DNA from: a virus
DNA: 40,790 nt
Virus genome (UHGV): UHGV-0115898
Reading direction: 5' to 3' (one strand)
The translations under genes and the position numbers were made by a program. The notes under the pieces are model-generated. The model was not told the origin of the DNA. It searched no databases and saw only the letters and a program-made list of their open reading frames with translations. Shown one piece after another: positions 2,796-40,790 of this stretch; the first letter of the stretch is position 1; every line of letters starts with the position of its first letter.

Positions 2796-3488
2796 TCACT
2801 CTCCTTTGATGCGAATGCCAGCAAGCCAGTTTCTTATGCCGATATATTCAGCGTTCCTGAAACCGCTTTTTACATATATAAATGGCAAGCGAAGATTGTG
2901 ACCATTGGCTGCCAGGTAGTATTTACAACCCTGTTCGGTGAAACAGCAGGTAACGAATTCATCAATATCTTTCACAGCAACGCGCCGCCATTTTTCTGGT
3001 GGCTCTCGAAAGTTTTCGTGAAGTAGTTCGAGACGACGACTTTGGCGTTTATTGGCTTCATTACCATCTTCATCAACCCAGACAATCCGGTCATAGTCAT
3101 AATCAGCATCAACAACGATTTCGCGCTTTTGATACACACAAAACATAGGGTCTGACGTTATTCGATTATCCTGTGTTCGAATATTTTCACCGATGATGCC
3201 AAACGAATCTGGTGCAGCTTTTTTCTCCAGCTCTGCAATGCGTTTGCTTTGAGCTTCCAGTTCATCAAGAAGCGCAAGCACGGTAGCCGGATTAGCCTTG
3301 GCAACAAAATCCCGGACTGACTTACAATCAATCTCCGCAATGGGTTGATACGATGTGTAGCCATGCTGTCTTGTATAACTACCGTGACGAATAACGAAAA
3401 AATCACCATTTATTTTTTTAGCCTGCCACTTATCTTCACCGGCTTTCTCTGCCGCTTCACGCAGTGCCTGATAATCAATCTTGCTCAC
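2796..3488 (-). CDS. Hypothetical phage protein, Ead/Ea22-like (230 aa), GTG start with AGGAGG Shine-Dalgarno
   Basis: Long ORF; start codon is GTG at 3486-3488 preceded by AGGAGGCAACCA on the minus strand; central coiled-coil-like AQSKRIAELEKKA. Confidence 0.55.
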   Translation of the reverse strand: MSKIDYQALREAAEKAGEDKWQAKKINGDFFVIRHGSYTRQHGYTSYQPIAEIDCKSVRDFVAKANPATVLALLDELEAQSKRIAELEKKAAPDSFGIIGENIRTQDNRITSDPMFCVYQKREIVVDADYDYDRIVWVDEDGNEANKRQSRRLELLHENFREPPEKWRRVAVKDIDEFVTCCFTEQGCKYYLAANGHNLRLPFIYVKSGFRNAEYIGIRNWLAGIRIKGE

Positions 3489-3729
3489 TGGTTGCCTCCT
3501 GCTTTTCTGCCTTCAACACCATGCGAGAACCATCATCCAGCTCCCACACTATCTCACCACCTTCAGCCATGACCAGTTGCCACACCAATTGAGCAGCCTC
3601 ATTGGTAACATCACGACCTGGATCATTGCCAACGCGCATACGTCCACCTTCAACATCGCGCATTTTTGCCAGCATGATAGTTTTTGATAGCGGTGAAAAA
3701 CCAAGCTGTAGTCGTGCTGAATTACTCAC
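3475..3729 (-). CDS. Hypothetical small protein (84 aa), GTG start with identical AGGAGGCAACCA leader
   Basis: ORF with GTGA overlap to upstream gene stop; the same 17-nt start module as the gene at 3488. Confidence 0.45.
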   Translation of the reverse strand: MSNSARLQLGFSPLSKTIMLAKMRDVEGGRMRVGNDPGRDVTNEAAQLVWQLVMAEGGEIVWELDDGSRMVLKAEKQEATSEQD

Positions 3730-4226
3730 TGGTTGCCTCCTTTGCGAAGCTGGTCGGCGAACAAACGTACACCAGACGCTTCACTGCGTAGTAACTTAAC
3801 GGCATCATCAAAACCACCTCGTTCTGCGTCGTCTGCTCCGTTGTCGAGGTTATCTGCGTACATCTCTACCCCCTGCGCCCGTACTTCAGCCAGGAAAGCA
3901 TCGGTGGCTGGGGTGTCTGATTGCAGAGACTTTGCGCGATAGTCATTCCACCCTCTTGCATACATGGGATTAACTTGCACTCCATCTTTTACGCAATATG
4001 CCTGCCCTCCACGGTTGATAACCTTGATTTCGCCCATAGCGCCAGACTTCAGCCCCGCATTCTCCGCTGCCAGCGCCGCGCACTTAGCCTCCGCTTCAGC
4101 AAATTTACGCACCAGATATTCAGCGTTTGTTTCGTTAACCTTTAAATCTCGGGGGATGCATTTACCTTTCAGGAATCCATCCATCTCAATTAGTGACATT
4201 TGTTTCATTTCTTCCCACTCCGCCAC
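3726..4226 (-). CDS. Hypothetical early-left protein (166 aa; start ambiguous between GTG at 4226 and ATG at 4208)
   Basis: ORF in operon orientation; acidic C-terminal half; no recognisable domain. Confidence 0.5.
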
Positions 4227-4365
4227 ATTGCATTCAGATATTTGTTGTCATTAACAGAGCCGAAACTATTTCTCTTAAGCAATTCCTCTCTCGATGGCAT
4301 TGGCTTTACGCGTTGGCGAATAATCATTTCTGCCGGAAGAATGCCGGGATTGTATGCAAGTCCTC

Positions 4366-4689
4366 TCATGATTTACTCTCAACGAACTGGTCAATAGCCA
4401 TGCTAAGTGACATACCTAAAGTTTCGATATGCTGCTGAATATCCTGTAGCGTCTGCGCCTGAGATAACAGGATTTCACGGTTGCATAATTCTTTAACCAG
4501 ATGCTCAAACTTGCTGTAATAACCGATACGGCTTAGTGTTTCTTTCCCTGCATTCTCGCCTTCTTTGATAATTCCTCTTTCACTAAGAATCAGATCGTGT
4601 TTGGTTCCGGTAATAACGTATTTTCCGAGGTCGATGTTTAGCTTCATTGTTTTCATGGTAAATTCCTCAGTCATTACTGATAGCGCCAT
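4366..4689 (-). CDS. Hypothetical protein (107 aa)
   Basis: ORF with ATG at 4687-4689, overlapping the upstream gene end by 23 nt. Confidence 0.5.
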
Positions 4690-4963
4690 AGCGTGAGCGG
4701 TAATTACGCAGGCGCGGGTCGATATATTCAGGGAAGTGGGTATATGTGGCTTTGCGGAATGGTCGGATTGATGTTTCGTTTATTCGGTCTTTTTCCTGTT
4801 TTTCTGCGAGTTGTATATCGCGTCGGCACTTCCGTTCTTCTTTTGTTTCTGGTGGCAGAGCAAGAAACGCGTCGAGATTATTCTTGATATTTTCCAGCAC
4901 CTCCGATACGGAATTGCCGGAACAGCGGCGCGGGTCATCCGCACCATACAGAGGCGCTGGCAT
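4667..4963 (-). CDS. Hypothetical basic protein (98 aa)
   Basis: ATG at 4961-4963 preceded by AGGAG at 6-nt spacing on the minus strand. Confidence 0.5.
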   Translation of the reverse strand: MPAPLYGADDPRRCSGNSVSEVLENIKNNLDAFLALPPETKEERKCRRDIQLAEKQEKDRINETSIRPFRKATYTHFPEYIDPRLRNYRSRYGAISND

Positions 4964-4979
4964 GGTTTTCTCCTGTTGA

Positions 4980-5528
4980 TTATTTAGCTAACTTTTTCCA
5001 GATCGCTGAAACGTATTTGGCTTGGTGAATGGCATCATCAAGCGCGTTGTGGCGAGTTCCTTTGAATGGCATATCTCGCTTAGGGTCGAATCCTATTACC
5101 TTCCCAAGTTCGACGATTGTTCTTACGTCGCGGTCATTCCACCACTGCCACGGAACTGGCTGCCCTGTCAGCGAATAACTGTTTCGGAGAATAACGCAGT
5201 CAAATGATGCTCCATTCCCCCAAACCTGAACGAATTTGTGGTTAGCGTTCTTTATGATGAATTCAGATAACCATGAAAGAGCCGTTGAAAGCTCCTGAGT
5301 GTTGCTGGTTAGCGATTTTCTGGCTTCTTCACTCTGTTCCAGCCACCATAAAATCGTTGAAGCGTCAGGACGCGCTCGATATCGCATTGATGATTCAAGC
5401 GAGATATTTACCGAGAACTCTTCTCCTGTTTCTCCGGTATTCGGGTCAAAGAATACCGACCCAATAGAAATAACTGGCGCGTATGGCCCGTTGCCCATTG
5501 TTTCAAGGTCAACCATCAAGTGATTCAT
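4980..5528 (-). CDS. DnaQ-like (DEDDh) 3'-5' exonuclease (182 aa)
   Basis: Exo I motif MVDLETMG near the N-terminus and Exo III motif HNALDDA near the C-terminus; size typical of phage stand-alone proofreading-type exonucleases. Confidence 0.8.
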   Translation of the reverse strand: MNHLMVDLETMGNGPYAPVISIGSVFFDPNTGETGEEFSVNISLESSMRYRARPDASTILWWLEQSEEARKSLTSNTQELSTALSWLSEFIIKNANHKFVQVWGNGASFDCVILRNSYSLTGQPVPWQWWNDRDVRTIVELGKVIGFDPKRDMPFKGTRHNALDDAIHQAKYVSAIWKKLAK

Positions 5529-7610: not shown

Positions 7611-7937
7611 TCAAATAAGTGGTTTGCTGCCTAATTTCATTTTCTGGCGACCAACACAAGTCACACCCATTTCACTGCGTGGCTTGCTGTACCATGTGCG
7701 CTGATTCTTGCGCTCAATACGTTGCAGGTTGCTTTCAATCTGTTCGTGGTATTCAGCCAGCACCGTAAGGTCTATCGGATTCAGTGCGCTTTCTACTCGT
7801 GATTTCGGTTTGCGATTCAGCGAGAGAATAGGGCGGTTAACTGGCTTTGCGCTTACCCCAACCAACAGGGGATTTGCTGCTTTCCATTGAGCCTGTTTCT
7901 CTGCGCGACGTTCGCGGCGGCGTGTTTGTGCATCCAT
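7611..7937 (-). CDS. N: Antiterminator N (108 aa)
   Basis: MDAQTRRRERRAEKQAQWKAANPLLVGVSAKPVNRPILSLNRKPKSRVESALNPIDLTVLAEYH... matches lambda N including the arginine-rich motif; ORF-track extension to 8027 uses an upstream TTG. Confidence 0.92.
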   Translation of the reverse strand: MDAQTRRRERRAEKQAQWKAANPLLVGVSAKPVNRPILSLNRKPKSRVESALNPIDLTVLAEYHEQIESNLQRIERKNQRTWYSKPRSEMGVTCVGRQKMKLGSKPLI

Positions 7938-8047
7938 CTGGATTCTCCTGTCAGTTAGCTTTGAGTAACGCGCCGTGATGCTTATCTCCACGGTTGCTGT
8001 CTTGCAGCTGCATTTCGCGCTACTCAAAGCCTTCTGCTTTGAATGCT

Positions 8048-8271: not shown

Positions 8272-8931
8272 TTAACTAAATGTCTCTTCAGGCCACTGGC
8301 TGGCGATAACTTTCCCTACTACGGAACAGCTATCATTGCATGGAATCATTGGATATTGCGGGTTTAGTGGCTGTAGGAACACCTGACCGCTATCCCTGAT
8401 CAGTTTCTTGAAGGTAAACTCGTCACCACCAAGTCTGGCTATGCAGAAATCACCTGGCTCAACAGCCTGCTCAGGGTCAACGAGAATTAACATCCCGTCA
8501 GGAAAGCTTGGCTTGGATCCTGTTGGCGCGGTCATGGAATTACCTTCAACTTCAAGCCAAAAAGCACAATCACTGGCTTTTTTGGTTGTGCTGACCCATC
8601 TCTCCGCATCACCTTTGGTAAAGGTTCTAAGCTCAGGCGAGAACATCCCGGCCTGAACATGAGAAAAAACAGGGTACTCATATTGTTTTTTAACGGGGGC
8701 AGATGAGTATTCGCCAACAGGTGAAAATGTACCGTCGTGGTTGAATGAGACGTTATCAATACCAAGGTATTTAAACACCACACCAATCTCGTCAAGAGAT
8801 GGATGACGAGATCCGCGCAACCAGTGACCAATTCCACCCTGCGTCATACCAAGCTCTTCAGCTAACTTCTCTTGAGTTATGCCGAGCTCTTTCATTCTGG
8901 ATCTAGCCAGTTCATACCATTTCATTTTCAT
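8272..8931 (-). CDS. cI: CI-type immunity repressor: lambda-like LexA/S24 C-terminal domain, non-lambda N-terminal HTH domain (about 219 aa from ATG at 8931; alternative ATG at 8925)
   Basis: C-terminal ~140 aa ([38 protein letters not shown]...[14 protein letters not shown]...FTFKKL...) matches lambda CI including the Ala-Gly cleavage site and Ser/Lys dyad; N-terminal ~80 aa differ. Confidence 0.88.
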
Positions 8932-9043
8932 ACCCTTATTATTACGCTCTGTACTAAAACCATCCATGCACAAGATGTATTTTTTTGTTTGCATTCTAAA
9001 AGTACATATCGTATTATTGTTTCATGGTTACTATGGAGGGCAT
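8932..9043. promoter_or_regulatory. Divergent cI-cro control region (oR-type operators, pR candidate TTGCAT-17-TATTAT, pRM region)
   Basis: Operator-like half-site pairs at 8941-8955 (atTACgctctGTACT) and 9001-9015 (AGTACatatcGTAtt) resemble the oL palindrome; -35 at 8989-8994 and -10 at 9012-9017 upstream of cro. Confidence 0.5.
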
Positions 9044-9259
9044 ATGAGCAACCTACGAAAATATCGAGAGTCACTGAATATCTCTCAAACAACACTTGCT
9101 AAGGCAGTTGGATGCACACAGGGAGCTATCGGACATTGGGAATCTGGTCGTCGCTTCCCAGACCTTAAAACATGCCGTGCTCTTGTTGAGTGCCTAAACA
9201 AGTTAGGCGCAAAAGTCAGTCTTGATGACGTGTTCCCGCCGGAACACAAAGCCGCTTAA
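9044..9259 (+). CDS. cro: Cro-like HTH regulator (71 aa)
   Basis: ATG at 9044 preceded by GGAGGG; helix-turn-helix ISQTTLAKAVGCTQGAIGHWESG; divergent from cI. Confidence 0.8.
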   Translation: MSNLRKYRESLNISQTTLAKAVGCTQGAIGHWESGRRFPDLKTCRALVECLNKLGAKVSLDDVFPPEHKAA

Positions 9260-9267
9260 GACATTCC

Positions 9268-9299
9268 CGCTCTTACACATCCCAGCCCTGAAAAAGGGC
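9268..9299 (+). promoter_or_regulatory. nutR site (boxA CGCTCTTA, boxB GCCCTGAAAAAGGGC)
   Basis: Exact boxA at 9268-9275 and boxB hairpin at 9285-9299 between cro and cII. Confidence 0.85.
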
Positions 9300-9378
9300 A
9301 TCAAATTAAACCACACCTATGGTGTATGCATTTATTTGCATACATTCAATCAATTGTTATCTAAGGAAATACTTACAT

Positions 9379-9672
9379 ATGGTTCGTGCAAACAAACGCA
9401 ACGAGGCACTACGAATCGAGAGTGCGTTGCTTAACAAAATCGCAATGCTTGGAACTGAGAAGACAGCGGAAGCTGTGGGAGTTGATAAGTCGCAGATCAG
9501 CAGGTGGAAGAGAGACTGGATTCCCAAGTTCTCAATGCTGCTTGCTGTTCTTGAATGGGGTGTCGTTGACGACGACATGGCTCGATTGGCACGACAAGTT
9601 GCTTCGATTCTCACCAATAAAAAACGCCCGGCGGCAACCGAGCGTTCTGAACAAATCCAGATGGAATTCTGA
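9379..9672 (+). CDS. cII: Transcriptional activator CII (97 aa)
   Basis: [51 protein letters not shown]... matches lambda CII; ATG at 9379; ORF-track start at 9319 is an upstream extension. Confidence 0.95.
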
Positions 9673-9704
9673 GGTCATTACTGGATCAATCCACAGGAAT
9701 CATT

Positions 9705-9851
9705 ATGACAAAACAACTCAGTCCTTACCAGGACAAAATTCACAAACACATACTACGTGATCGCTTCCTGTCCAGCTTCAAGCAGCCTGGTCGATTCCGG
9801 GCTGAGTTGGAAAAAGTGAAGCTGATGCAGAAGGAGAAAGGTCATGAGTAA
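9705..9851 (+). CDS. Small ORF (48 aa) between cII and the replication initiator
   Basis: ATG at 9705 preceded by AGGAA; basic 48-aa product; stop overlaps the O-like start; below the ORF-track threshold, found by reading the DNA; P22 has an orf48 at this position (from memory). Confidence 0.45.
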
Positions 9852-10704
9852 TCTTGCAACCGTAACACATTTAAGGCCTTCACAACGGCCTGTGGAGCGT
9901 CGTGTGGCAGAAGTTGAAGATGGTTATACCCGTCTTGCAAATGCCCTGTATGAAGAGCTTATCGGCGCAGATTTAACGAAAAATCAGAGTAAGGTTGCCC
10001 ACGCCATATGCCGTAAAACATACGGCTACGGTAAAAAGATGGATCGCATCTCTGATAGTCAGTTAGCTCAAATTACCAGGCTGCCAAGACAGAAGGTAAA
10101 CAAGGCCAAGAATGAGCTTATCGCGATGAAGGTTATCCTTCGCGAAGGCCAGCAAATCGGGCCTAACAAGAACATCGAGGAATGGCAAATCGAAGGGTGT
10201 CACTACTCTGGTGATAATGTCACTGCATTGGTGACAAAAAGTGTCACCAAAACGGTGACAGCGCTGTCACCAAAACAGGGACACACAAAAGAAACTATTA
10301 CAAAAGAAAAAAGAAATAATAAAAACACTATGTCCGAAAGTGTTCGGACGGAGTGTGAAAAATCACCTGACCGTCACGAAGAAACCGACAAGGCATTCGA
10401 GGAAATATTCTGGTGTGCAGGCATGCGGAAAGCCGGGAAGAAAAACGCAGCTTCGGCATTCAGAACACAGTTCAGGGAATGGCGTAAAACTACCAGGGGT
10501 ACGGCAAGCGAGTTTGCCACGATGCTGGCAGAAGACATCGCATGCAGGAATGGTAAGCAGTTCGGATTCGACAGGTTGTTACCATCGAGCTACCTGAACG
10601 GTCAGCGCTGGAACGACGAGAAGCCAGAAACTATTCAACCACAATCCAAACCATCATCCGCAATCACCGTATCGAAAACTGGCTACGTGTTTTTCGACAG
10701 GTGA
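9844..10704 (+). CDS. Replication initiator, lambda O / P22 gp18-like (286 aa)
   Basis: N-terminal block [56 protein letters not shown]...GPNKNIEEW parallels the lambda O N-terminus; gene contains iterons. Confidence 0.85.
10211..10330. other. Putative origin of replication inside the initiator gene: inverted-repeat iterons followed by an A-rich tract
   Basis: tgtcactgcattggtgaca / tgtcaccaaaacggtgaca / tgtcaccaaaacaggga at 10218-10281, then acacaaaagaaactattacaaaagaaaaaagaaataataaaaac; same layout as lambda ori within O. Confidence 0.7.
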
Positions 10705-10811
10705 ACCATGAAATCAAAAATCAAATCGCTACTGGTCGCTGGTTATAACCACGGCTGGTTAAGTATTTCGTTTGTCGATTTCTGGTTTAAAAATCTCAAT
10801 CTGAGGGAATC

Positions 10812-12692
10812 ATGACTCCAAGTGAACTCAGTGACCTGCTTTGGGCGCAGGTTGACAGGGTGGCTCCGCACCTGTTGCCAAACGGCAAGAAAGAGGGGCA
10901 TGAGTGGGTTGCCGGTAACGTCAACGGTGACAAGGGAAACAGCCTTAAGGTCAACCTTAGCGGCAAGAAAAAATGGGCTGATTTCGCTGAGGGAGACGGC
11001 GGTGACATGCTTGATTTGTGGATGGCATGTCGTGGAATTAACCTGCATCAGGCTATGCAGGAAGCGAAAGCCTTTCTCGGAATCAAGGATGACGATCACC
11101 ATTTCGATGCCAAACGTGAGAAGAAATTCTCCAGACCTGACCGCAAGAAAATCGCCCGCTACGTTACCAGAACAGAATCCCATCTTGAGTACCTGCAATC
11201 GCGTGGCATATCGCCAGAAGTCGTAAAGCGCTACGAGGTTGTCAGCGGCAAGGTGTGGAATGGAGAACGAGAACTTGATGCACTGGTGCTTCCGTACAAA
11301 CGCGATGGTGAGTTGTTGCAGGTCAAGCGAATCAGCACTGAGCGCCCGGACGGGAAGAAAGTCATTATGGCAGAAGGTGATTGCGAACCTTGTCTGTTCG
11401 GATGGCAGGCTCTGGACGCTGGCGTGAGGGCGGTTGTACTTTGCGAAGGCGAAATTGATTGTATGAGCTATGCGCAATACGGCATCTCGGCGTTATCCGT
11501 GCCGTTTGGTGGCGGGAAAGGCGCTAAGCAACAGTGGATTGAGTTTGAGTATCACAACCTCGACAGGTTTGAGGAAATATTCATCTCGATGGACGTTGAT
11601 GATGTTGGTCGTGAAGCCGCAAGGGAAATCGCAAGCCGACTCGGTGAACATCGTTGCCGTCTTGTTACTCTGCCGTACAAAGACATCAACGAATGCCTGA
11701 TGAACGGTGTTACCGAGGATGAAATCTGGCAGTACATCGGCACGGCATCCTACTTCGATCCTGAAGAACTCTACAGCGCGCGAGAGTTTTACCAGGACAC
11801 TATCAACGCTTTCTACGGCAAGCAGCAGTATCTGTTTAATCCACCGTGGGAATCTCTGGCAGATAAATTCCAGTTCCGTGAGGCCGAGTTGACGCTGGTC
11901 AATGGTGTGAACGGTCACGGAAAAACGGAGGTTGTCGGGCATATGGCTCTTGAGGCAATGCGTCAGGGTGTGAAGACGTGCATCGCGTCACTTGAGCTGA
12001 AGCCTGGTATTCTCCTTAAGCGCCTTACCCGTCAGGCGACGTGCTGCAAGATGCCGCCAGTGCTGGAAATTGACTCTGCATTTAAATTTTATGACGAAAG
12101 ACTTTGGGTGTTTGGTCTGACCGGAACGGCGAAAGCCGACAGGCTGATCGAAATATTCGACTACGCTCGCCGCCGATACGGCATCCAGTTATTCATCATC
12201 GACAGCCTGATGAAATGCGGCATAGGTGACGATGACTATAACGGGCAGAAAGCATTTGTTGACTCGATTTGTGACTTCAAAAACAAAACAAACTCCCACG
12301 TCATTCTCGTTACTCACTCCAGAAAAGGAGATAGCGAAGAAAAACCAACCGGGAAAATGGACGTAAAAGGCTCTGGAGCGATAACAGACCTGACAGACAA
12401 CCTTTTCATCATCTGGCGTAACAAGGCTCGCGAGAGAGCGTTACAGAGAGTTCAGAGTGGTGAAAAGATGTCAGAGAAGGACGAACAGCTACTGGCATCT
12501 CCGGCATCTGTTTTGATGCTTGAAAAACAACGTAACGGCGAAGGTTGGGAAGGTGGTGTCCCGTTGTTCCTTGACGAGCAATCGCACCAGTTCCTGCAAC
12601 TTGAATCAGGATCGCCATATAGCTACATCGCCAATATGCCGAAATCGGAATATGACGAGGCGTGGAGACAGGAAAACGTGACGGAGTATTAA
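10812..12692 (+). CDS. Bifunctional DNA primase/helicase (TOPRIM-type primase N-terminal domain, DnaB/RepA-like P-loop ATPase C-terminal domain), 626 aa
   Basis: Walker A VNGVNGHGKTE, Walker B-like LFIIDSL; N-terminal region with acidic TOPRIM-like VLCEGEIDCMS; occupies the lambda P / P22 gene 12 position. Confidence 0.8.
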   Translation: MTPSELSDLLWAQVDRVAPHLLPNGKKEGHEWVAGNVNGDKGNSLKVNLSGKKKWADFAEGDGGDMLDLWMACRGINLHQAMQEAKAFLGIKDDDHHFDAKREKKFSRPDRKKIARYVTRTESHLEYLQSRGISPEVVKRYEVVSGKVWNGERELDALVLPYKRDGELLQVKRISTERPDGKKVIMAEGDCEPCLFGWQALDAGVRAVVLCEGEIDCMSYAQYGISALSVPFGGGKGAKQQWIEFEYHNLDRFEEIFISMDVDDVGREAAREIASRLGEHRCRLVTLPYKDINECLMNGVTEDEIWQYIGTASYFDPEELYSAREFYQDTINAFYGKQQYLFNPPWESLADKFQFREAELTLVNGVNGHGKTEVVGHMALEAMRQGVKTCIASLELKPGILLKRLTRQATCCKMPPVLEIDSAFKFYDERLWVFGLTGTAKADRLIEIFDYARRRYGIQLFIIDSLMKCGIGDDDYNGQKAFVDSICDFKNKTNSHVILVTHSRKGDSEEKPTGKMDVKGSGAITDLTDNLFIIWRNKARERALQRVQSGEKMSEKDEQLLASPASVLMLEKQRNGEGWEGGVPLFLDEQSHQFLQLESGSPYSYIANMPKSEYDEAWRQENVTEY

Positions 12693-12720
12693 ATGACCAT
12701 CTACATCACTGAGTTAATAA

Positions 12721-12753
12721 CAGGCCTGCTGGTAATCGCAGGCCTTTTTATTT
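12721..12753 (+). terminator. Putative intrinsic terminator (tR2-like) upstream of ninB
   Basis: AGGCCTGC-tggtaatc-GCAGGCCT hairpin followed by TTTTTATTT. Confidence 0.55.
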
Positions 12754-12769
12754 GGGGGAGAGGGAAGTC

Positions 12770-13210
12770 ATGAAAAAACTAACCTTTGAAATTCGATCTC
12801 CAGCACATCAGCAAAACGCTATTCACGCAGTACAGCAAATCCTTCCAGACCCAACCAAACCAATCGTAGTAACCATTCAGGAACGCAACCGCAGCATAGA
12901 CCAGAATCGAAAGCTTTGGGCTTGCCTTGGTGACGTCTCTCGTCAGGTTGAATGGCATGGGCGCTGGATGGATGCAGAAAGCTGGAAGTGTGTGTTTACC
13001 GCAGCATTAAAGCAGCAGGACGTTGTTCCTAACCTTGCCGGGAATGGCTTTGTGGTAATAGGCCAGTCAACCAGCAGGATGCGTGTAAGCGAATTTGCGG
13101 AGTTATTAGAGCTTATACAGGCATTTGGTACAGAGCGTGGCGTTAAGTGGTCAGACGAAGCGCGACTAGCTCTCGAATGGAAAGCGCGATGGGGAGATCG
13201 GGCTGCATGA
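12770..13210 (+). CDS. ninB: NinB recombination protein (146 aa)
   Basis: MKKLTFEIRSPAHQQNAIHAVQQILPDPTKPIVVTIQERNRS... matches lambda NinB; ATG at 12770. Confidence 0.95.
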   Translation: MKKLTFEIRSPAHQQNAIHAVQQILPDPTKPIVVTIQERNRSIDQNRKLWACLGDVSRQVEWHGRWMDAESWKCVFTAALKQQDVVPNLAGNGFVVIGQSTSRMRVSEFAELLELIQAFGTERGVKWSDEARLALEWKARWGDRAA

Positions 13211-13734
13211 CTATCAAATCAAATACGCCAGCACACGACAAGGACTGCTGGCAAACGCCGCTTTGGCTTTTTGATGCACTGGATATTGAGTTTGGATTCT
13301 GGCTGGATTCGGCAGCGAGCGACAAAAATGCTCTGTGCGCTCACTGGCTGACTGAGGCCGACGACGCGCTCAATTCTGAGTGGGTAAGCCACGGTGCAAT
13401 CTGGAATAACCCGCCGTACAGCAATATCAGGCCGTGGGTGGAAAAAGCCGCTGAGCAGTGCATACAACAGCGACAGACGGTAGTGATGCTTGTGCCAGAG
13501 GATATGTCAGTCGGATGGTTCAGCAAGGCTCTGGAGAGTGTTGACGAAGTTCGTATTATCACTGATGGACGGATTAATTTTATCGAACCATCGACAGGGC
13601 TGGAGAAGAAGGGAAACAGCAAAGGCTCCATGCTGCTGATTTGGCGACCGTTCATCAGTCCTCGACGGATGTTTACTACCGTATCAAAAGCGGCATTGAT
13701 GGCGATCGGGCAGGGCGTCAGGAGGGCGGCATGA
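13207..13734 (+). CDS. Phage orphan DNA N6-adenine methyltransferase (Dam-type), 175 aa
   Basis: Catalytic NPPY motif (IWNNPPYSN), conserved W-x-TP region; ATGA overlap with ninB; replaces lambda ninC/ninD. Confidence 0.8.
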
Positions 13735-13907
13735 GACGACAGCGACGAAGTATCACCGACATCATCTGCGAAAACTGCAAATACCTTCCAACGAAACGCT
13801 CCAGAAATAAACGCAAGCCAATCCCAAAAGAATCTGACGTAAAAACCTTCAACTACACGGCTCACCTGTGGGATATCCGGTGGCTAAGACATCGTGCGAG
13901 GAAATGA
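13731..13907 (+). CDS. ninE: NinE (58 aa)
   Basis: [52 protein letters not shown]... matches lambda NinE. Confidence 0.9.
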
Positions 13908-14278
13908 CAATGGATTATTCACAGTTAAGTGATTTTGAAATTAACAGAATGGTAGGAGACATAATTTTTAAGGGCCTTTGGGCATGTAAGCCTGAAACAT
14001 CAGGGAATAACACAAATAAATGGTATTACGGAAATGCTGATACAAGTCTTGAGCCATTAAACCCTTTACCTGACTACTGCAATGATCCGAGAGCTGCATG
14101 GCCTGTAATCGCAAAACATCAGATCAGCATATGTGCATACGAAAGAAATAATCCTGGAATGAAGAATGAATATTGGTGGGAGGCGGATAGATTTTGTGAA
14201 TTTATTACCATAGACAATAACCCACTCCGCGCCGCCATGATTGTATTTCTCATGATGCAGGACGCCAATAATGCTTAG
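13904..14278 (+). CDS. Hypothetical nin-region protein (about 124 aa)
   Basis: ORF with ATGA overlap to ninE and overlap with ninF start; no recognisable motif. Confidence 0.55.
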
Positions 14279-14447
14279 CCCATCCCAATCAATTCAATAC
14301 CAGAAAGAAAGCGTCGAGCTGGCTTTAACGTGCGCTAACTGCGGTCAGAAGCTGCATGTGCTGGAAGTTCACGTGTGTGAGCACTGCTGCGCAGAACTGA
14401 TGAGCGATCCGAATAGCTCAATGTACGAGGAAGAAGACGATGGCTAA
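14271..14447 (+). CDS. ninF: NinF (58 aa)
   Basis: Translated by eye: [58 protein letters not shown]; matches lambda NinF; below the ORF-track size cutoff. Confidence 0.85.
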
Positions 14448-15051
14448 ACCAGCGCGAAGACGATGTAAAAACGAAGAATGTCGGGAATGGTTTCACCCTG
14501 CATTCGCTAATCAGTGGTGGTGCTCTCCAGAGTGTGGAACAAAGATAGCACTCGAACGACGAAGCAAAGAACGCGAAAAAGCGGAAAAAGCAGCAGAGAA
14601 GAAACGACGACGAGAGGAGCAGAAACAGAAAGATAAACTTAAGATTCGAAAACTCGCCTTAAAGCCCCGCAGTTACTGGATTAAACAAGCCCAACAAGCC
14701 GTAAACGCCTTCATCAGAGAAAGAGACCGCGACTTACCATGTATCTCGTGCGGAACGCTCACGTCTGCTCAGTGGGATGCCGGACATTACCGGACAACTG
14801 CTGCGGCACCTCAACTCCGATTTGATGAACGCAATATTCACAAGCAATGCGTGGTGTGCAACCAGCACAAAAGCGGAAACCTCGTTCCGTATCGCGTCGA
14901 ACTGATTAATCGCATCGGGCAGGAAGCAGTAGACGAAATCGAATCAAACCATAACCGCCATCGCTGGACTGTCGAAGAGTGCAAGGCGATCAAGGCAGAG
15001 TACCAACAGAAACTCAAAGACCTGCGAAATAGCAGAAGTGAGGCCGCATGA
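14440..15051 (+). CDS. ninG: NinG / Rap recombination-associated structure-specific endonuclease (203 aa)
   Basis: [41 protein letters not shown]... matches lambda NinG. Confidence 0.95.
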
Positions 15052-15254
15052 CGTTCTCAGTAAAAACCATTCCAGACATGCTCGTTGAAGCATACGGAAA
15101 CCAGACAGAAGTAGCACGCAGACTGAAATGTAGTCGCGGTACGGTCAGAAAATACGTTGATGATAAAGACGGGAAAATGCACGCCATCGTCAACGACGTT
15201 CTTATGGTTCATCGCGGATGGAGTGAAAGAGATGCGCTATTACGAAAGAATTGA
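15048..15254 (+). CDS. ninH: NinH (68 aa)
   Basis: [68 protein letters not shown] matches lambda NinH. Confidence 0.9.
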
Positions 15255-15897
15255 TGGCAGCAAATACCGAAATATTTGGGTAGTTGGCGATCTGCACGGA
15301 TGCTACACGAACCTTATGAACAAACTGGATACGATAGGATTCGACACCAAAAAAGACCTGCTTATCTCGGTTGGTGATTTGGTCGATCGCGGTACAGAGA
15401 ACGTTGAATGCCTGGAATTAATCACATTCCCCTGGTTCAGAGCTGTACGTGGAAACCATGAGCAAATGATGATTGATGGCTTATCAGAGCGCGGAAACGT
15501 CAATCACTGGCTGCTTAATGGCGGTGGCTGGTTCTTTAATCTCGATTACGACAAAGAAATTCTGGCTAAAGCTCTTGCCCATAAAGCAGATGAACTTCCG
15601 TTAATCATCGAACTGGTGAGTAAAGATAAAAAATATGTCATCTGCCACGCCGATTATCCTTGTGACGAATACGAGTTTGGAAAGCCAGTTGATCATCATC
15701 AGGTAATCTGGAACCGCGAACGAATCAGCAACTCACAAGACGGGATCGTGAAAGAAATTAAAGGCGCGGACACGTTCATCTTTGGTCATACGCCAGCAGT
15801 GAAACCGCTCAAATTTGCCAACCAGATGTATATCGATACCGGCGCAGTGTTCTGCGGAAATCTCACATTGATTCAGGTACAGGGAGAAGGCGCATGA
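15232..15897 (+). CDS. ninI: Ser/Thr protein phosphatase (lambda PPase / NinI), 221 aa
   Basis: Metallophosphoesterase motifs GDLHG, GDLVDRG, GNHE; matches the lambda phosphatase; ATG at 15232 (ORF-track start at 15157 is an upstream extension). Confidence 0.95.
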
Positions 15898-16517
15898 GAC
15901 TCGAAAGCGTAGCTAAATTTCATTCGCCAAAAAGCCCGATGATGAGCGACTCACCACGGGCTACGGCTTCTGACTCTCTTTCCGGTACTGATGTGATGGC
16001 TGCTATGGGGATGGCGCAATCACAAGCCGGATTCGGAATGGCTGCATTCTGCGGTAAGCATGAACTCAGCCAGAACGACAAACAAAAGGCTATCAACTAT
16101 CTGATGCAATTTGCACACAAGGTATCGGGGAAATACCGTGGTGTGGCAAAGCTCGAAGGAAATACTAAGGCAAAGGTACTGCAAGTGCTCGCAACATTCG
16201 CTTATGCGGATTATTGCCGTAGTGCCGCGACGCCTGGCGCAAGATGCAGAGATTGTCACGGTACAGGCCGTGCGGTTGATATAGCCAAAACAGAGCAGTG
16301 GGGGAGAGTTGTCGAGAAAGAGTGCGGAAGATGCAAAGGCGTCGGCTATTCAAGGATGCCAGCAAGCGCAGCATATCGCGCTGTGACGATGCTAATCCCA
16401 AACCTTACCCAACCCACCTGGTCACGCACTGTTAAGCCGCTGTATGACGCTCTGGTGGTGCAATGCCACAAGGAAGAGTCAATCGCAGACAATATTTTGA
16501 ATGCGGTCACACGTTAG
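15894..16517 (+). CDS. Q: Late-gene antiterminator Q (207 aa)
   Basis: Full-length match to lambda Q from memory ([31 protein letters not shown]... zinc-binding CRDCHGTG...CGRCKG). Confidence 0.97.
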
Positions 16518-16559
16518 CGGCATGATTGCCACGGATGGCAACATCTTTACGGCATGATA

Positions 16560-16590
16560 TTGACTTTTTGAATAAAGTTGGGTAAATTTG
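16560..16590 (+). promoter_or_regulatory. Late promoter pR' with qut region (TTGACT - 17 nt - TAAATT)
   Basis: -35 at 16560-16565, -10 at 16583-16588; sequence context matches lambda pR' downstream of Q. Confidence 0.75.
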
Positions 16591-16594
16591 ACCC

Positions 16595-16789
16595 AACGAT
16601 GGGTTAATTCGCTCGTTGTGGTAGTGAGATAAAAAGAGGCGGCGCTTACTACCGATTCCACCTAGTTGGTCAATTCGACGTATCGTCTGGAACTCCAACC
16701 ATCGCAGGCTGAGAGGTCTGTAAAATGCAATCCCGAAACAGTTCGCAGGTAATAGTTAGAGCCTGCATAACGGTTTCTGGATTTTTTAT
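16595..16789 (+). ncRNA. Putative 6S-type short late leader transcript from pR' to tR'
   Basis: About 195 nt between the pR' start region and the tR' hairpin, as in lambda; inferred from architecture only. Confidence 0.45.
16732..16789 (+). terminator. tR'-type intrinsic terminator
   Basis: CCCGAAAC...GTTTCTGG outer stem with inner GCAGG...CCTGC stem, followed by ATTTTTTAT. Confidence 0.7.
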
Positions 16790-17300
16790 GTCTGTGCAAC
16801 AGGTAAGAGCATTCTCCCTTATGGGGCTTGGCTTAAATGCACCGAGTGCTCTTACCGTTGTGATGAATGCACAGGCTGATGTGCCGCAACTACAGTAGTG
16901 CGCGCTTTGCGGGGCTTGCTACAACCCTGAGTCGGAGTTCAGCACCGACCATCACAACGCAACGTTAAGAGTATTTGGCTAATTAAGCGAATGCCGGAAG
17001 CAGAACCGGATCACCAAATGCGTACAGGCGTCATCGCCGCCCAGCAACAGCACAACCCAAACTGAGCCGTAGCCACTGGCTATCCTGGATTCATCAGTGA
17101 TAGTTATGCTGCGGCCTTCTACACATGACCTTCGTGAAAGCGGGTGGCATGAGGTTGCGCTAACAACCTCCTGCCGTTTTGCCCGTGCATATCGGTCACG
17201 AACAAATCTGATTACTAAACACAGTAGCCTGGATTTGTTCTATCAGTAATCGACCTTATTCCTAATTAAATAGAGCAAATCCCCTTATTGGGGGTAAGAC

Positions 17301-17624
17301 ATGAAGATGCCAGAAAAACATGACCTGTTAGCCGCCATTCTCGCGGCAAAGGAACAAGGCATCGGGGCAATCCTTGCGTTTGCAATGGCGTACCTTCGCG
17401 GCAGATATAATGGCGGTGCGTTTACAAAAACAGTAATCGACGCAACGATGTGCGCCATTATCGCCTGGTTCATTCGTGACCTTCTCGACTTCGCCGGACT
17501 AAGTAGCAATCTCGCTTATATAACGAGCGTGTTCATCGGATACATCGGTACTGACTCGATTGGTTCGCTTATCAAACGCTTCGCTGCTAAAAAAGCCGGA
17601 GTAGAAGATGGTGGAAATCAATAA
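17301..17624 (+). CDS. S: Class I holin S (S107 antiholin / S105 holin dual-start motif MKM), 107 aa
   Basis: [64 protein letters not shown]... matches lambda S; three TM segments. Confidence 0.97.
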
Positions 17625-27686: not shown

Positions 27687-28534
27687 TGGCGGATTCAAAT
27701 CTCAATGTGCCGGTAATCATTCAGGCTACACGGCTCGACACATCAGTCCTTCCACGCAATATCTTCTCGCAGTCGTATCTGCTTTACGTTATCGCACAGG
27801 GTACTGATGTTGGTAACGTGGCGAACAAGGCCAACGAGGCCGGACAGGGCGCTTATGATGCACAAGTCAGGAACGATGAGCAGGATGTGATTCTCGCTGA
27901 CCATGAGCAGCGAATTTCTGCTGCGGAAGCAACGCTTGTTAATCATGAGGAGCGAATCAGCCAGGCAGAATCAACTCTTCAGGAACATGAAACACGAATA
28001 GCTCAGAATGAAAGCGATATTGCGTCGCTTGATACCAGAGTTCAGTCGCTGGAATCGCAGGTTTCAGACCATGAAACGCGCATCGATGCTCTGGAGTATG
28101 CCACTACTCGCAAGAAGTCAGAGGTTGTTTACTCTGGCGTATCTGTCACCATACCGACAGCGCCGACCAACCTTGTTAGCCTGCTGAAAACGCTCACGCC
28201 GTCATCCGGCTCGTTGGCACCATTCTTCGACACAGTTAACAACAAGATAGTTGTGTTCAACGAGAACAAAACCTTGTTCTTCAAGCTGTCTATCGTCGGG
28301 ACGTGGCCCAGCGGAACCGCCAACAGGTCAATGCAGCTAACCTTTTCAGGCTCTGTTCCTGACACACTGGTAAGCAGTCGTAATGCGGCGACAACAACCG
28401 ACAACATCCTGTTAGCTACGTTCTTCAGCGTGGATAAAGACGGATTTCTTGCCACAAATGGCAGTACGTTAACCATCCAGTCAAATGGTGCGGCGTTTAC
28501 TGCCACAACCATCAAGATAATCGCGGAGCAGTGA
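27686..28534 (+). CDS. Tail needle, P22 gp26-like N-terminus with a longer, different C-terminal region (282 aa)
   Basis: N-terminal 60 aa match P22 gp26 ([29 protein letters not shown]...[24 protein letters not shown]); heptad-repeat central coil; C-terminal ~120 aa beta-rich and unlike P22. Confidence 0.85.
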
Positions 28535-28989
28535 TGATTCAGTTCAAACCAACGCGAAACATCGACCTGATCGAAGCAGTCGGAAATCACCCTGACATTA
28601 TTGCCGGGAGCAACAACGGTGATGGATACGACTACAAACCTGATTGCCGTTACTTTGAGGTGAACGTGCACGGGCAGTTCGGCGGCATTGTTTACTATCA
28701 GGAGATTCAGCCGCTTACATTCGATTGCCACGCCATGTACCTGCCAGAGATTCGTGGATTCAGCAAGGAAATTGGGCTGGCGTTCTGGCGATACATTCTG
28801 ACTAACACCACCGTTCAGTGCGTAACATCGTTCGCTGCACGCAAATTCCGACACGGTCAGATGTACTGCGCAATGATTGGCCTTAAGCGTGTCGGAACCA
28901 TCAAGAAATACTTTAAAGGCGTGGATGACGTGACTTTTTACAGCGCCACACGCGAAGAACTAATCGACTTCCTGAATCACGGGAGATAG
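28534..28989 (+). CDS. Virion assembly protein in the P22 gene 14 position (about 151 aa)
   Basis: Gene order after the needle gene; ATG at 28534 overlaps the needle stop (TGATG); ORF-track start at 28531 is GTG. Confidence 0.6.
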   Translation: MIQFKPTRNIDLIEAVGNHPDIIAGSNNGDGYDYKPDCRYFEVNVHGQFGGIVYYQEIQPLTFDCHAMYLPEIRGFSKEIGLAFWRYILTNTTVQCVTSFAARKFRHGQMYCAMIGLKRVGTIKKYFKGVDDVTFYSATREELIDFLNHGR

Positions 28990-28991
28990 CC

Positions 28992-29684
28992 ATGTTATAT
29001 GCATTTAAGCTGGGCAGAAAACTGCGCGGCGAGGAACCTTGGTGCCATGAAAAAGGCGGGAAAGGTGGTAGCTCTGATAAAAGCGCAAAGTATGCAGCAG
29101 AAGCCCAGAAGTATGCAGCAGACCTGCAAAATCAGCAGTTCAACACCATCATGAACAACCTGAAGCCGTTTACTCCTCTGGCTGATAAGTATGTCGGCAG
29201 CCTCGAGAACTTATCGTCTCTGGAAGGGCAAGGTCAGGCACTTAACCAGTATTACAACTCTCAGCAGTACAAAGATCTTGCTGGTCAGGCTCGCTATCAG
29301 AGTCTGGCGGCAGCGGAAGCAACAGGTGGATTGGGTTCCACTGCAACCGGTAATCAGTTAGCAACAATCGCACCAACGCTTGGTCAGCAGTGGCTGTCTG
29401 GTCAGATGAACAACTACCAGAATCTGGCAAACGTTGGGCTTGGTGCTCTGCAAGGTCAGGCAAACGCAGGGCAGACATATGCCAACAACATGAGTCAGAT
29501 TTCGCAGCAAAGTGCGGCTCTTGCAGCGGCAAATGCCAACAGACCATCAGCAATGCAATCTGCTATTGGCGGAGGTGCGTCTGGTGCTATTGCTGGGGCT
29601 GGACTTGCGAAATTAATTGGTTCATCAACTCCGTGGGGGGCTGCGATCGGCGGCGGTCTTGGTCTGCTTGGCTCGTTGTTTTAA
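28992..29684 (+). CDS. Ejection (internal virion) protein, P22 gp7-like (230 aa)
   Basis: Gln/Ala/Gly-rich low-complexity protein with glycine-rich hydrophobic C-terminus; length and order match P22 gp7. Confidence 0.8.
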   Translation: MLYAFKLGRKLRGEEPWCHEKGGKGGSSDKSAKYAAEAQKYAADLQNQQFNTIMNNLKPFTPLADKYVGSLENLSSLEGQGQALNQYYNSQQYKDLAGQARYQSLAAAEATGGLGSTATGNQLATIAPTLGQQWLSGQMNNYQNLANVGLGALQGQANAGQTYANNMSQISQQSAALAAANANRPSAMQSAIGGGASGAIAGAGLAKLIGSSTPWGAAIGGGLGLLGSLF

Positions 29685-33121: not shown

Positions 33122-33514
33122 TTAGCGGTTGATGGTTGCTTTTTTCGGGTCATACCATCTCGGCCATTCTTTCAGGAATGGGAATGAGTCGGGAGCGTGG
33201 TTCTTTTTGTACGATTTAAGCAGCCTTAACCGCTCTATCGCACACTCATAAACCTCTTGTTGCCCTGTAGTCATCTCGGTCCATGAAAGGTGATCCATTG
33301 ATAAGACAACGTTTTCAGCTTCTTTTATGAGGGCGTTTTTATTTCTCACCGCAGCAGCATGGCTGACAGAGCAATCCTGCCATATTCTTAAAAGCCAAAT
33401 AGCTAAGCAGATAAAAAAAATGGTAGATAGCGATATATACACACCAACCTCTTTAGTTTTTCTAGTTACTTTGTCACGATAGGATATGCGAAATGATAAA
33501 ACTAAATTGCGCAC
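33122..33514 (-). CDS. Hypothetical membrane protein (130 aa, GTG start, one N-terminal TM helix) in AT-rich insertion; positional analogue of P22 sieA
   Basis: TM segment VGVYISLSTIFFICLAIWLLRIW after a basic N-terminus; AT-rich codon usage by eye; start is GTG with weak Shine-Dalgarno. Confidence 0.45.
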   Translation of the reverse strand: MRNLVLSFRISYRDKVTRKTKEVGVYISLSTIFFICLAIWLLRIWQDCSVSHAAAVRNKNALIKEAENVVLSMDHLSWTEMTTGQQEVYECAIERLRLLKSYKKNHAPDSFPFLKEWPRWYDPKKATINR

Positions 33515-33702
33515 ATGATAACTCAGTAATAATTGTTAATGAAAACATGATCACCTATATTGCACAAGGCGAAACAGGAAGCATAATCTGGTTTCATGAG
33601 TGTGATCACGTTTGGGTAAATCAAAGTCAAGAGGAAATACTTGAAATTATCAAAAATAACTATCTAAACGTTGCACACGACTCATCTATCCATTTTTCAT
33701 AA
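33493..33702 (+). CDS. Possible small ORF (69 aa) overlapping both flanking minus-strand genes
   Basis: ATG with AGGA 8 nt upstream; overlaps the 130-aa gene start by 22 nt and the 193-aa gene end by 43 nt, so at most one of the overlapping models is likely to be fully correct. Confidence 0.25.
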   Translation: MIKLNCAHDNSVIIVNENMITYIAQGETGSIIWFHECDHVWVNQSQEEILEIIKNNYLNVAHDSSIHFS

Positions 33703-34241
33703 AATTGTATACCGAGATAGGCAAGAACAGATGGATGTATATCAACAAGCTTTTCGCCAAGATGTTCTGTTGGAGGTGGATAATCTTTGCCTTGGTTTCT
33801 TACGGTTATAGGCATAGTTGTTGCTGGATGAAACTCAACTATCATAGGGTCGCCTTCGTATTTTGCTATTTTCCCTGTTGAATCAATGATTAACTCTTTA
33901 ATATAATGGCTTCTTGCTCCCGGAAATGCCCCAAGAGTAGTATAAGGAGGTTCAAGTTTTGAGATTTCCATAGTGGAATGATGATCAGCATTTCTTGCTT
34001 GGTGAAGGTAAGCAAGTGTTTTGTCTGTTTTTCTAAGCATGAACTTTTGGTTGAAGTGGCTGCTAAATTTTCCACTAACCGGCTTTGTTGCACAGAGCAA
34101 CTTACTGAAAGACTTTTCTATATGCCCAAGACATTCTCGCCAGTGCATTTCAAAATCATCATGGTTTGTAGATGATTTCATCTGCTCTAGGCACTTTTTA
34201 GCTGCGATGATTTCTTTTTTTGCTGGGTTGTAATCGATCAT
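33660..34241 (-). CDS. Hypothetical protein (193 aa) translationally coupled to mnt
   Basis: ATG at 34239-34241 overlaps the mnt stop (ATGA) with AAGGA 6 nt upstream; AT-rich; no recognisable domain. Confidence 0.6.
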   Translation of the reverse strand: MIDYNPAKKEIIAAKKCLEQMKSSTNHDDFEMHWRECLGHIEKSFSKLLCATKPVSGKFSSHFNQKFMLRKTDKTLAYLHQARNADHHSTMEISKLEPPYTTLGAFPGARSHYIKELIIDSTGKIAKYEGDPMIVEFHPATTMPITVRNQGKDYPPPTEHLGEKLVDIHPSVLAYLGIQFYEKWIDESCATFR

Positions 34242-39462: not shown

Positions 39463-40381
39463 TTTTATTCTTACCCTTTAAAATATATCTTGGACGCTGT
39501 TTAACCTCGATATAAATCCTTCCGATGTATTCACCAAGTACCCCTATACCGATCAACTGAATCCCGCCCAAGAAAAGTATCGATACCAGCAAAGATGGAT
39601 AACCACGAACAGCATTCCCAAATACAAGCGTGTCGATAATCATCCACGTTCCGTACAGGAATGCCACTCCGGCAACAAACAGGCCGATATAGGTCCACAT
39701 ACGCAGGGGTAATGTTGAGAAACTTGTGATTCCTTCAAGTGCTAAATTCCACAACTTCCACCCATTGAATTTTGAATCACCTGCAACCCGTTCTGCGCGT
39801 GCGTATTCCACGACATCTGTCTTTCCGCCAACCCAACTAAGAATGCCTTTCATGAAAAGATTGCGTTCTGGCAGGAGCTTAATATTCTCCACTACCTCGC
39901 GAGACATTAGCCTGAAATCTCCAACATTTTCCTCGATCTGCGGGTTGCTGATTTTGTTATGCAGCTTATAGAACCACTCGGCGGTTTTCCTCTTCAGTCT
40001 GCCATCAGTTGAGCGGTCAGATCGTTTAGCAAGCACCATGTCAGCACCTGCTAGCCATTTCTCAATCAGGTGAGGAATAACTTCTATTGGATCCTGTAAG
40101 TCAACGTCAATCGGGATAATCGCCTCACCAGTTGCGTGATCAAGACCAGCGAACAGCGCAGGTTCTTTACCAAAGTTTCTGGTGAATGACAAAGGAACAA
40201 CAAGCGGATCGGAAACAGCCAGCGCGTTTATAATTGATTCAGTAGCGTCTATGCTACCGTCATTAATAAAGACTATCTCGATTTCATGTTGCTGAAGCCC
40301 TTCAAATTCCCGAGCCGTTTTATAAAAAATCGGTATTGTGTCTTCTTCGTTGAAGACGGGAACGACCAGAGAAATTTTCAT
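39455..40381 (-). CDS. gtrB: GtrB bactoprenol glucosyltransferase (GT2 family), 308 aa
   Basis: GT2 motifs ([22 protein letters not shown]) with two C-terminal TM helices. Confidence 0.92.
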
Positions 40382-40740
40382 CTCGCATCCCTAAATACAA
40401 TTAACTTTGAATAGACGAAACCGCACACCAGGCTGATGGCGGAGAAAGTGATAAGGGTGACCATTGGGGGAAGTGCACATCTATCAGCAGCCCACCCGAC
40501 GACAACACTCAGGGTTCCCATGAATCCCACGTATAACATGTAGCGCATCGTTGTAGTCGATGCTTTGAATGTGAATCTTGCATTCGCGAAGAAGCTAAAG
40601 CTCACAGCTACTATGAAACCTGCGAAGTTTGCCAGAGCCTGATTGGTATGCGCTGCATAGATACATACACCAAAAACCACCCAGTGTATAAGTGTGTTTA
40701 GCACACCAATCGAGGTGTACTTTGCAAATAGCTTTAACAT
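40378..40740 (-). CDS. gtrA: GtrA flippase-like small membrane protein (120 aa)
   Basis: Four predicted TM segments, 120 aa, immediately upstream of and overlapping gtrB. Confidence 0.88.
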
Positions 40741-40790
40741 TTCTTCTATCAGCTAATAATCAAAGGCATGAAGTCTATCATCCAAGTCTC

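Follow-up and report, generated by a model that had tools for sequence, protein, structure and literature searches.

The closest described relative of the gene analyzed here encodes M.EcoVT2Dam of the Shiga toxin (Stx) 2 phage VT2-Sakai (VT2-Sa), an orphan methyltransferase whose known target is GATC (PMC6602927, citing Radlinska & Bujnicki 2001, PMID 11720311) and which has equivalents in 933W-type and Phi24B Stx phages. M.EcoT1Dam of phage T1 and a 35%-identical relative, M.Btr190III, methylate GATC as well, the latter with significant off-target activity (PMC4996451). PamA, a small Staphylococcus aureus prophage enzyme of 141 amino acids with an NPPY motif at residues 64-67, also methylates GATC and reprograms host genes (PMC12435837). 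Here we compare with these enzymes the product of a dam gene located at positions 13207-13734 (+ strand) of the UHGV virus genome UHGV-0115898, a stretch of DNA of 40,790 nucleotides (nt) that was analyzed as a whole and is referred to as the window.

The 175-amino-acid product of this gene is identical to VT2-Sakai orf32 (NP_050531.1) at 175/175 residues. The window copy of dam differs from the VT2-Sakai copy at eight nt, and 8/8 of these differences are synonymous and fall in third codon positions, which indicates purifying selection on the reading frame. Since orf32 is the sole methyltransferase in the VT2-Sakai annotation, its full identity with the window protein makes the latter M.EcoVT2Dam. 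The possibility that a second VT2-Sakai methyltransferase is the real M.EcoVT2Dam was rejected, as none is annotated and orf4 (299 amino acids), the one long unannotated open reading frame (ORF) that was scanned against Pfam, matched DUF551 only. The two systems share the protein, the orphan status and the ninB-dam-ninE arrangement with overlapping start and stop codons; apart from the eight synonymous changes only the carrier differs, being a P22-like (Lederbergvirus-type) prophage with a lambda int and a gtr operon here and not a Stx phage. With the specificity taken from the literature on M.EcoVT2Dam, the window protein is predicted to methylate the adenine of GATC. We consider it highly likely that this gene encodes a minimal orphan GATC N6-adenine methyltransferase of the lambdoid nin region, which would act during the lytic phase and top up the methylation of phage DNA.

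Profile searches placed the protein over its full length in the T1-HP1-VT2 Dam family, with scores above the curated cut-offs for both Pfam PF05869 ("DNA N-6-adenine-methyltransferase (Dam)"; E 6e-65, 218 bits, cut-off 28.1 bits, profile positions 1-167 of 169) and the equivalog-level NCBIfam model TIGR01712 ("phage N-6-adenine-methyltransferase"; E 1e-79, 266 bits, cut-off 97 bits). It also matched phrog_111 (PHROG 111, "DNA methyltransferase", E 9e-88), and its best models in PADLOC were "oMTase" (orphan methyltransferase, E 4e-19). The codons for N68-P69-P70-Y71 (aac ccg ccg tac, 13408-13419, +) encode catalytic motif IV of amino-methyltransferases, which is invariant in 39/39 homologues of 59-100% identity, as are T17-P18, D34 and A36. 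The latter two residues belong to the conserved D-x-A-A loop W32-L33-D34-S35-A36-A37 (13300-13317, +), the putative motif I for binding of S-adenosylmethionine (AdoMet). Motif IV is thus present together with the N-terminal WxTP and D-x-A-A blocks, which align with the T1 Dam motifs. The family matches and the invariance of NPPY bear out the initial annotation, which had called the product an N6-adenine methyltransferase with this motif.

No solved structure was detectable by sequence for this protein. An AlphaFold2 model built from 39 homologues (predicted local distance difference test, pLDDT, 82.9; predicted template modelling score, pTM, 0.83) predicts a compact class I AdoMet methyltransferase core, to which N6-adenine methyltransferases are nearest; the top Foldseek match, and nearest solved fold, was PCIF1, the eukaryotic cap N6-methyladenine (m6A) enzyme. 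In the model NPPY follows strand 64-68, and the first strand (31-36) leads into the invariant D34-x-A36-A37; by analogy with M.TaqI-type enzymes we infer that this loop would bind AdoMet. A separate target-recognition domain is absent from the modelled 175 residues, and the conserved hairpin region 121-140 (G121, R122, F125, K139 and G140) is a candidate DNA-contact element.

The description of the enzyme as "Dam-type" holds for its target and its name and fails for its family. Canonical Dam enzymes (E. coli Dam, T4 Dam and DpnM) belong to PF02086, are of the alpha class, carry a DNA-recognition domain and measure about 260-280 amino acids. The Pfam scan gave no PF02086 match for the window protein, which shares 7-13% identity with these enzymes, is about 100 amino acids shorter, lacks the separate DNA-recognition domain and has a motif order resembling that of M.TaqI (motif I before motif IV). 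As judged from its sequence it is a functional analogue of the host Dam that stands outside the host Dam family. T1 Dam, on the other hand, is homologous to it (33% identity over 158 amino acids, E 2e-26). This enzyme (phage T1 gp ST20), along with HP1/HP2 Dam of Haemophilus phages by annotation, shares PF05869, the N-terminal WxTP, D-x-A-A, NPPY and the GATC target, but T1 Dam is 237 amino acids long, carries an N-terminal extension as well as an insertion that precedes the final conserved block, and is encoded by a virulent phage and not in a nin-region cassette. PamA of prophage mPhi11 resembles the window protein as a small, prophage-encoded orphan GATC enzyme with NPPY, and a staphylococcal phage protein (H129) is 36% identical to the window protein over residues 15-125. 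PamA differs in that its host has no Dam and its activity changes host expression and virulence, whereas the usual enterobacterial hosts of the phages considered here already methylate GATC.

The dam ORF spans 528 nt and, as its profile scores show, lies far beyond chance expectation. Its ATG (13207-13209), preceded by GGAG 10 nt upstream, overlaps the TGA stop of ninB (13208-13210), and its own TGA stop (13732-13734) overlaps the ATG of ninE (13731-13733), so that both junctions are 4-nt ATGA overlaps. The translationally coupled upstream neighbor ninB (12752-13210, +; Orf recombination mediator) matched PF05772 (E 2e-53) and phrog_72; its translation probably begins at ATG 12770. The coupled downstream neighbor ninE (13731-13907, +) matched PF05322 (E 7e-44). 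The coordinates, the length, the NPPY motif and both neighbors had been given correctly in the initial annotation. Two other readings of the locus were rejected. An in-frame GTG at 13147, which would yield 195 amino acids, lies inside ninB, and the ATG at 13207 gives the 175 amino acids of homologues and annotations. An antisense ORF of 174 amino acids overlapping dam (13341-13865, -) was dismissed as a shadow ORF, because the Pfam and NCBIfam matches are in the + frame and all differences between the phages are third positions of that frame.

The gene order in lambda is ninB-ninC-ninD-ninE. Positions 12693-13210 of the window, comprising the last few bases of ren, the ren-ninB spacer and ninB, are 95.4% identical to lambda, and this homology ends at the ninB stop and resumes at 13738, inside ninE. 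These breakpoints show that dam replaces ninC and ninD exactly at the gene junctions, confirming the earlier proposal that it stands in their place. NinC (PAPS (3'-phosphoadenosine 5'-phosphosulfate) reductase-like) and NinD of lambda occupy the same slot and are unrelated to the dam product. Further downstream, ninX (13905-14304) represents extra sequence with respect to lambda, after which 14305-16600 (ninF to Q) is once more 97.5% lambda-like. The exchange is not obligatory: a degraded prophage in E. coli HNSQ2209 (3064-5043) has the order ninB(pseudo)-dam-ninC-ninE(pseudo), so the dam and ninC cassettes can coexist and the swap is a cassette exchange and not an obligatory alternative. The nin genes flanking the dam-ninC pair in HNSQ2209, ninB and ninE, carry internal stops, while dam is intact.

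Going by its sequence content, the window comprises essentially one complete prophage. At the left end, bases 1-1600 match lambda 27763-29361 (int, xis) with 97.7% identity and base 1 lies 25 nt to the right of a lambda-type attP core, and the right end lies 50 nt upstream of gtrA (40378-40740, -). The early region is of the lambda/P22 type, encoding Lar, dATP/dGTP pyrophosphohydrolase, Ea22, Abc2, exonuclease, SSB, a Rad52-family annealing protein, CIII, N and an S24-type repressor. Next come an O-type initiator, a primase-helicase and the nin region, then lysis and morphogenesis genes of the P22 kind, and finally the antirepressor, the tailspike and gtrABC. Scans with Pfam, PHROGs or PADLOC covered the non-structural ORFs of 90 amino acids or more (early-left, immI and nin regions) and detected no restriction endonuclease family or known defence partner among them. 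The late region matches P22-like structural genes, and three ORFs of the window (3726-4226, 33122-33514 and 33660-34241) are without an assigned function. Both neighbors of dam are nin genes joined to it by overlapping codons, and the sequence between the attP core and gtrA leaves almost no room for an endonuclease gene beyond the window but inside the element. The enzyme thus classes as an orphan methyltransferase and not as half of a Type II restriction-modification pair. This agrees with its best PADLOC match and with the orphan status originally assigned to it; an adjacent cognate endonuclease, which would have overturned this status, did not turn up in the window.

Several other features of the element were observed. 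It is a mosaic in which lambda int and nin genes are combined with P22-like (Lederbergvirus) virion genes, and the first 25 kb of the window are covered to at most 64% by any complete E. coli genome. The replication module (10812-12692, +) consists of the O-type initiator and a 626-amino-acid fusion of a Toprim primase and a DnaB-like helicase that replaces lambda P; lambda homology resumes 1 nt past the stop of this module, just 5' of a tR2-like terminator (12722-12745). Near int, a Lar-type restriction-alleviation gene (PF14354; 1625-1927, -) adjoins the dATP/dGTP pyrophosphohydrolase gene (PF04447; 1924-2520, -), which adds further anti-restriction or nucleotide-pool functions to the same prophage. 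In the immI region, on the opposite strand and where P22 has sieA, ORF 33660-34241 (-) encodes a soluble protein of 193 amino acids that belongs to phrog_23516 and matched nothing in Pfam or PADLOC. Its sequence includes "ARNADHH", an Rx4H pattern that recalls HEPN nucleases, which makes the gene a candidate moron for exclusion or abortive infection. The adjoining ORF 33122-33514 (-) encodes 130 amino acids with a hydrophobic segment (phrog_10450).

The position of dam in the early-right operon suggests when it would be expressed. The tR2-like intrinsic terminator just 5' of ninB (12722-12745, +) forms a strong hairpin with six GC pairs in its 8-bp stem and a T run behind it, and it occupies the lambda tR2 position within sequence that is about 95% identical to lambda. 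In lambda the nin genes downstream of tR2 need N antitermination (Cheng et al. 1995, as cited in PMC8022706), and an N gene is present in the window at 7611-8027. No promoter of its own was apparent for dam, as promoter-like sites in 8800-17400 occurred at chance level (8 versus 9.8 expected). The upstream terminator and the lack of an above-chance promoter point to delayed-early lytic expression with translation coupled to ninB. Under the favored reading dam would be transcribed from pR past the tR2-type terminator only under N antitermination, upon infection or induction, and translated through its coupling to ninB. The enzyme would then raise the GATC methylation of rapidly replicating phage DNA that host Dam alone leaves under-methylated, yielding fully GATC-methylated progeny genomes. 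Such methylation would protect against endonucleases that cut unmethylated GATC (MboI/DpnII type) as well as against MutH-directed nicking during replication and recombination, and it would enable growth in Dam-poor hosts. As host Dam leaves the virion DNA of lambda and P22-like phages under-methylated (PMC8022706), topping up GATC methylation would be the most economical role and is the most likely one.

A number of observations weigh against this reading. The GATC specificity goes back to one 2001 paper as cited in later work, and the activity of the window protein is predicted. The usual enterobacterial hosts already have Dam, and what they or the phage would gain from a second GATC enzyme is not obvious. 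The prophage is depleted of GATC about two-fold, with 100 sites observed versus 158 expected from base composition and 202 from a Markov model (observed/expected 0.49), which is unexpected if methylated GATC is harmless or beneficial; among 4-bp palindromes this depletion is matched only by CTAG and GGCC. Lastly, the product of a Phi24B dam coding sequence of identical length was detected in lysogen cultures (PMC3342100), so expression may not be strictly lytic, although spontaneous induction could explain the detection.

The Phi24B result also fits a role of the enzyme as an epigenetic regulator in the lysogen, where leaky phage Dam would alter Dam-sensitive switches, including that of its own gtr operon, or stabilize lysogeny. 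The gtr operon that the initial annotation had pointed out on the same prophage is indeed present in the window as gtrABC, while a link between it and the enzyme is speculative. In P22, phase variation of gtr requires Dam and OxyR and is lost when Dam is over-expressed; it depends on four GATC sites within OxyR half-sites, which lie between 58 and about 140 nt upstream of the gtrA start codon (PMC2909390). The 50 nt upstream of gtrA that the window contains (40741-40790) include no GATC, and a P22-type regulatory region would lie just past the window end. In the closest E. coli relative, which is 86% identical, a GATC (in AATCGATCGATA) is found 55-58 nt ahead of the gtrA ATG, where GATC4 lies in P22, and thereby 5-8 nt past the point equivalent to the window end (relative's region 2042-2150); it was the only one seen in the first ~150 nt of this relative. 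By analogy, a Dam/OxyR gtr switch may exist in this prophage. Stable 933W lysogeny needs host Dam (Murphy et al. 2008, as cited in PMC3342100), and PamA reprograms the genes of its S. aureus host. Nevertheless, we regard such a regulatory role as unlikely. With dam behind a tR2-like terminator in the N-dependent pR operon, which is repressed in the lysogenic state, and promoter-like sites around it no more frequent than chance, the gene should be silent there, and phage Dam is probably silent in lysogens, where gtr acts. The usual enterobacterial hosts, unlike the Dam-less S. aureus, already methylate about 99.9% of their GATC sites (PMC6602927), the same dam occurs in hundreds of phages without a gtr operon, and the gtr regulatory region lies outside the window. 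The more specific proposal that phage Dam, at a low level or linked to induction, biases its own gtr Dam/OxyR switch and so tunes the heterogeneity of lysogen surface antigens and superinfection by related phages is very improbable.

A relaxed specificity, by which the enzyme would methylate GATC along with related sites and shield the phage from restriction more broadly than a strict Dam could, appears a little less probable than a regulatory role in general. The absence of a separate target-recognition domain from the 175 residues, the off-target activity of its family member M.Btr190III and the investment of the prophage in anti-restriction through the Lar gene would be in line with it. M.EcoVT2Dam is reported to be GATC-specific, however, in the paper that cites the original work (PMC6602927). 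According to the same study, the Shiga toxin-producing E. coli (STEC) strain 95NR1 carries two copies whose proteins are 99% identical and has only three m6A motifs, GATC, CTGCAG and CRARCAG; CTGCAG and CRARCAG were attributed to other enzymes, and the phage gene may have been silent in this strain. That dam is an inactive or decaying passenger without current function is hardly credible. Lambda nin-region genes are dispensable and this cassette is often swapped, but the protein equals that of a distant Stx phage despite the eight nt differences, the catalytic and family-invariant residues are all intact, and the frame is full-length with a coupled start and stop. The lytic-phase GATC methyltransferase that tops up phage DNA methylation hence remains our preferred reading.

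With respect to its distribution, dam is an already known and very common cassette of the lambdoid nin region. Copies with 95% or more DNA identity to it are present in 1566/5426 complete E. coli genomes (~29%), up to five per genome, and are mostly annotated as "phage N-6-adenine-methyltransferase"; in these genomes and in phages the layout is ninB-dam-ninE with few exceptions. The ninB-dam-ninE-ninX segment matched 432 phage records, including lambda-like, Stx-converting, Shigella Sf101 and other P22-like phages. A homologue was found by tblastn in 2030 of 50,697 phage records, 244 of which were at least 95% identical, and among 5.8 billion proteins searched, full-length homologues came from many Enterobacterales, including Pectobacterium, Serratia, Edwardsiella, Yersinia, Providencia and Photorhabdus. 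The notability implied for this gene is therefore not sustained: it ranks among the commonest nin-region cassettes, its protein equals a published enzyme, and the NCBI pipeline annotates it automatically in thousands of genomes, which leaves the locus little discovery value. Of general interest is a 175-amino-acid enzyme without a recognisable DNA-recognition domain and without a solved structure, a property of the family as a whole. The role of common phage Dam genes in hosts that have their own Dam is likewise a question of general interest that concerns the whole family and not this locus in particular. If the improbable link to gtr were true, one prophage mosaic would couple a GATC methyltransferase to its own gtr O-antigen glucosylation and would thereby shape superinfection by related phages.
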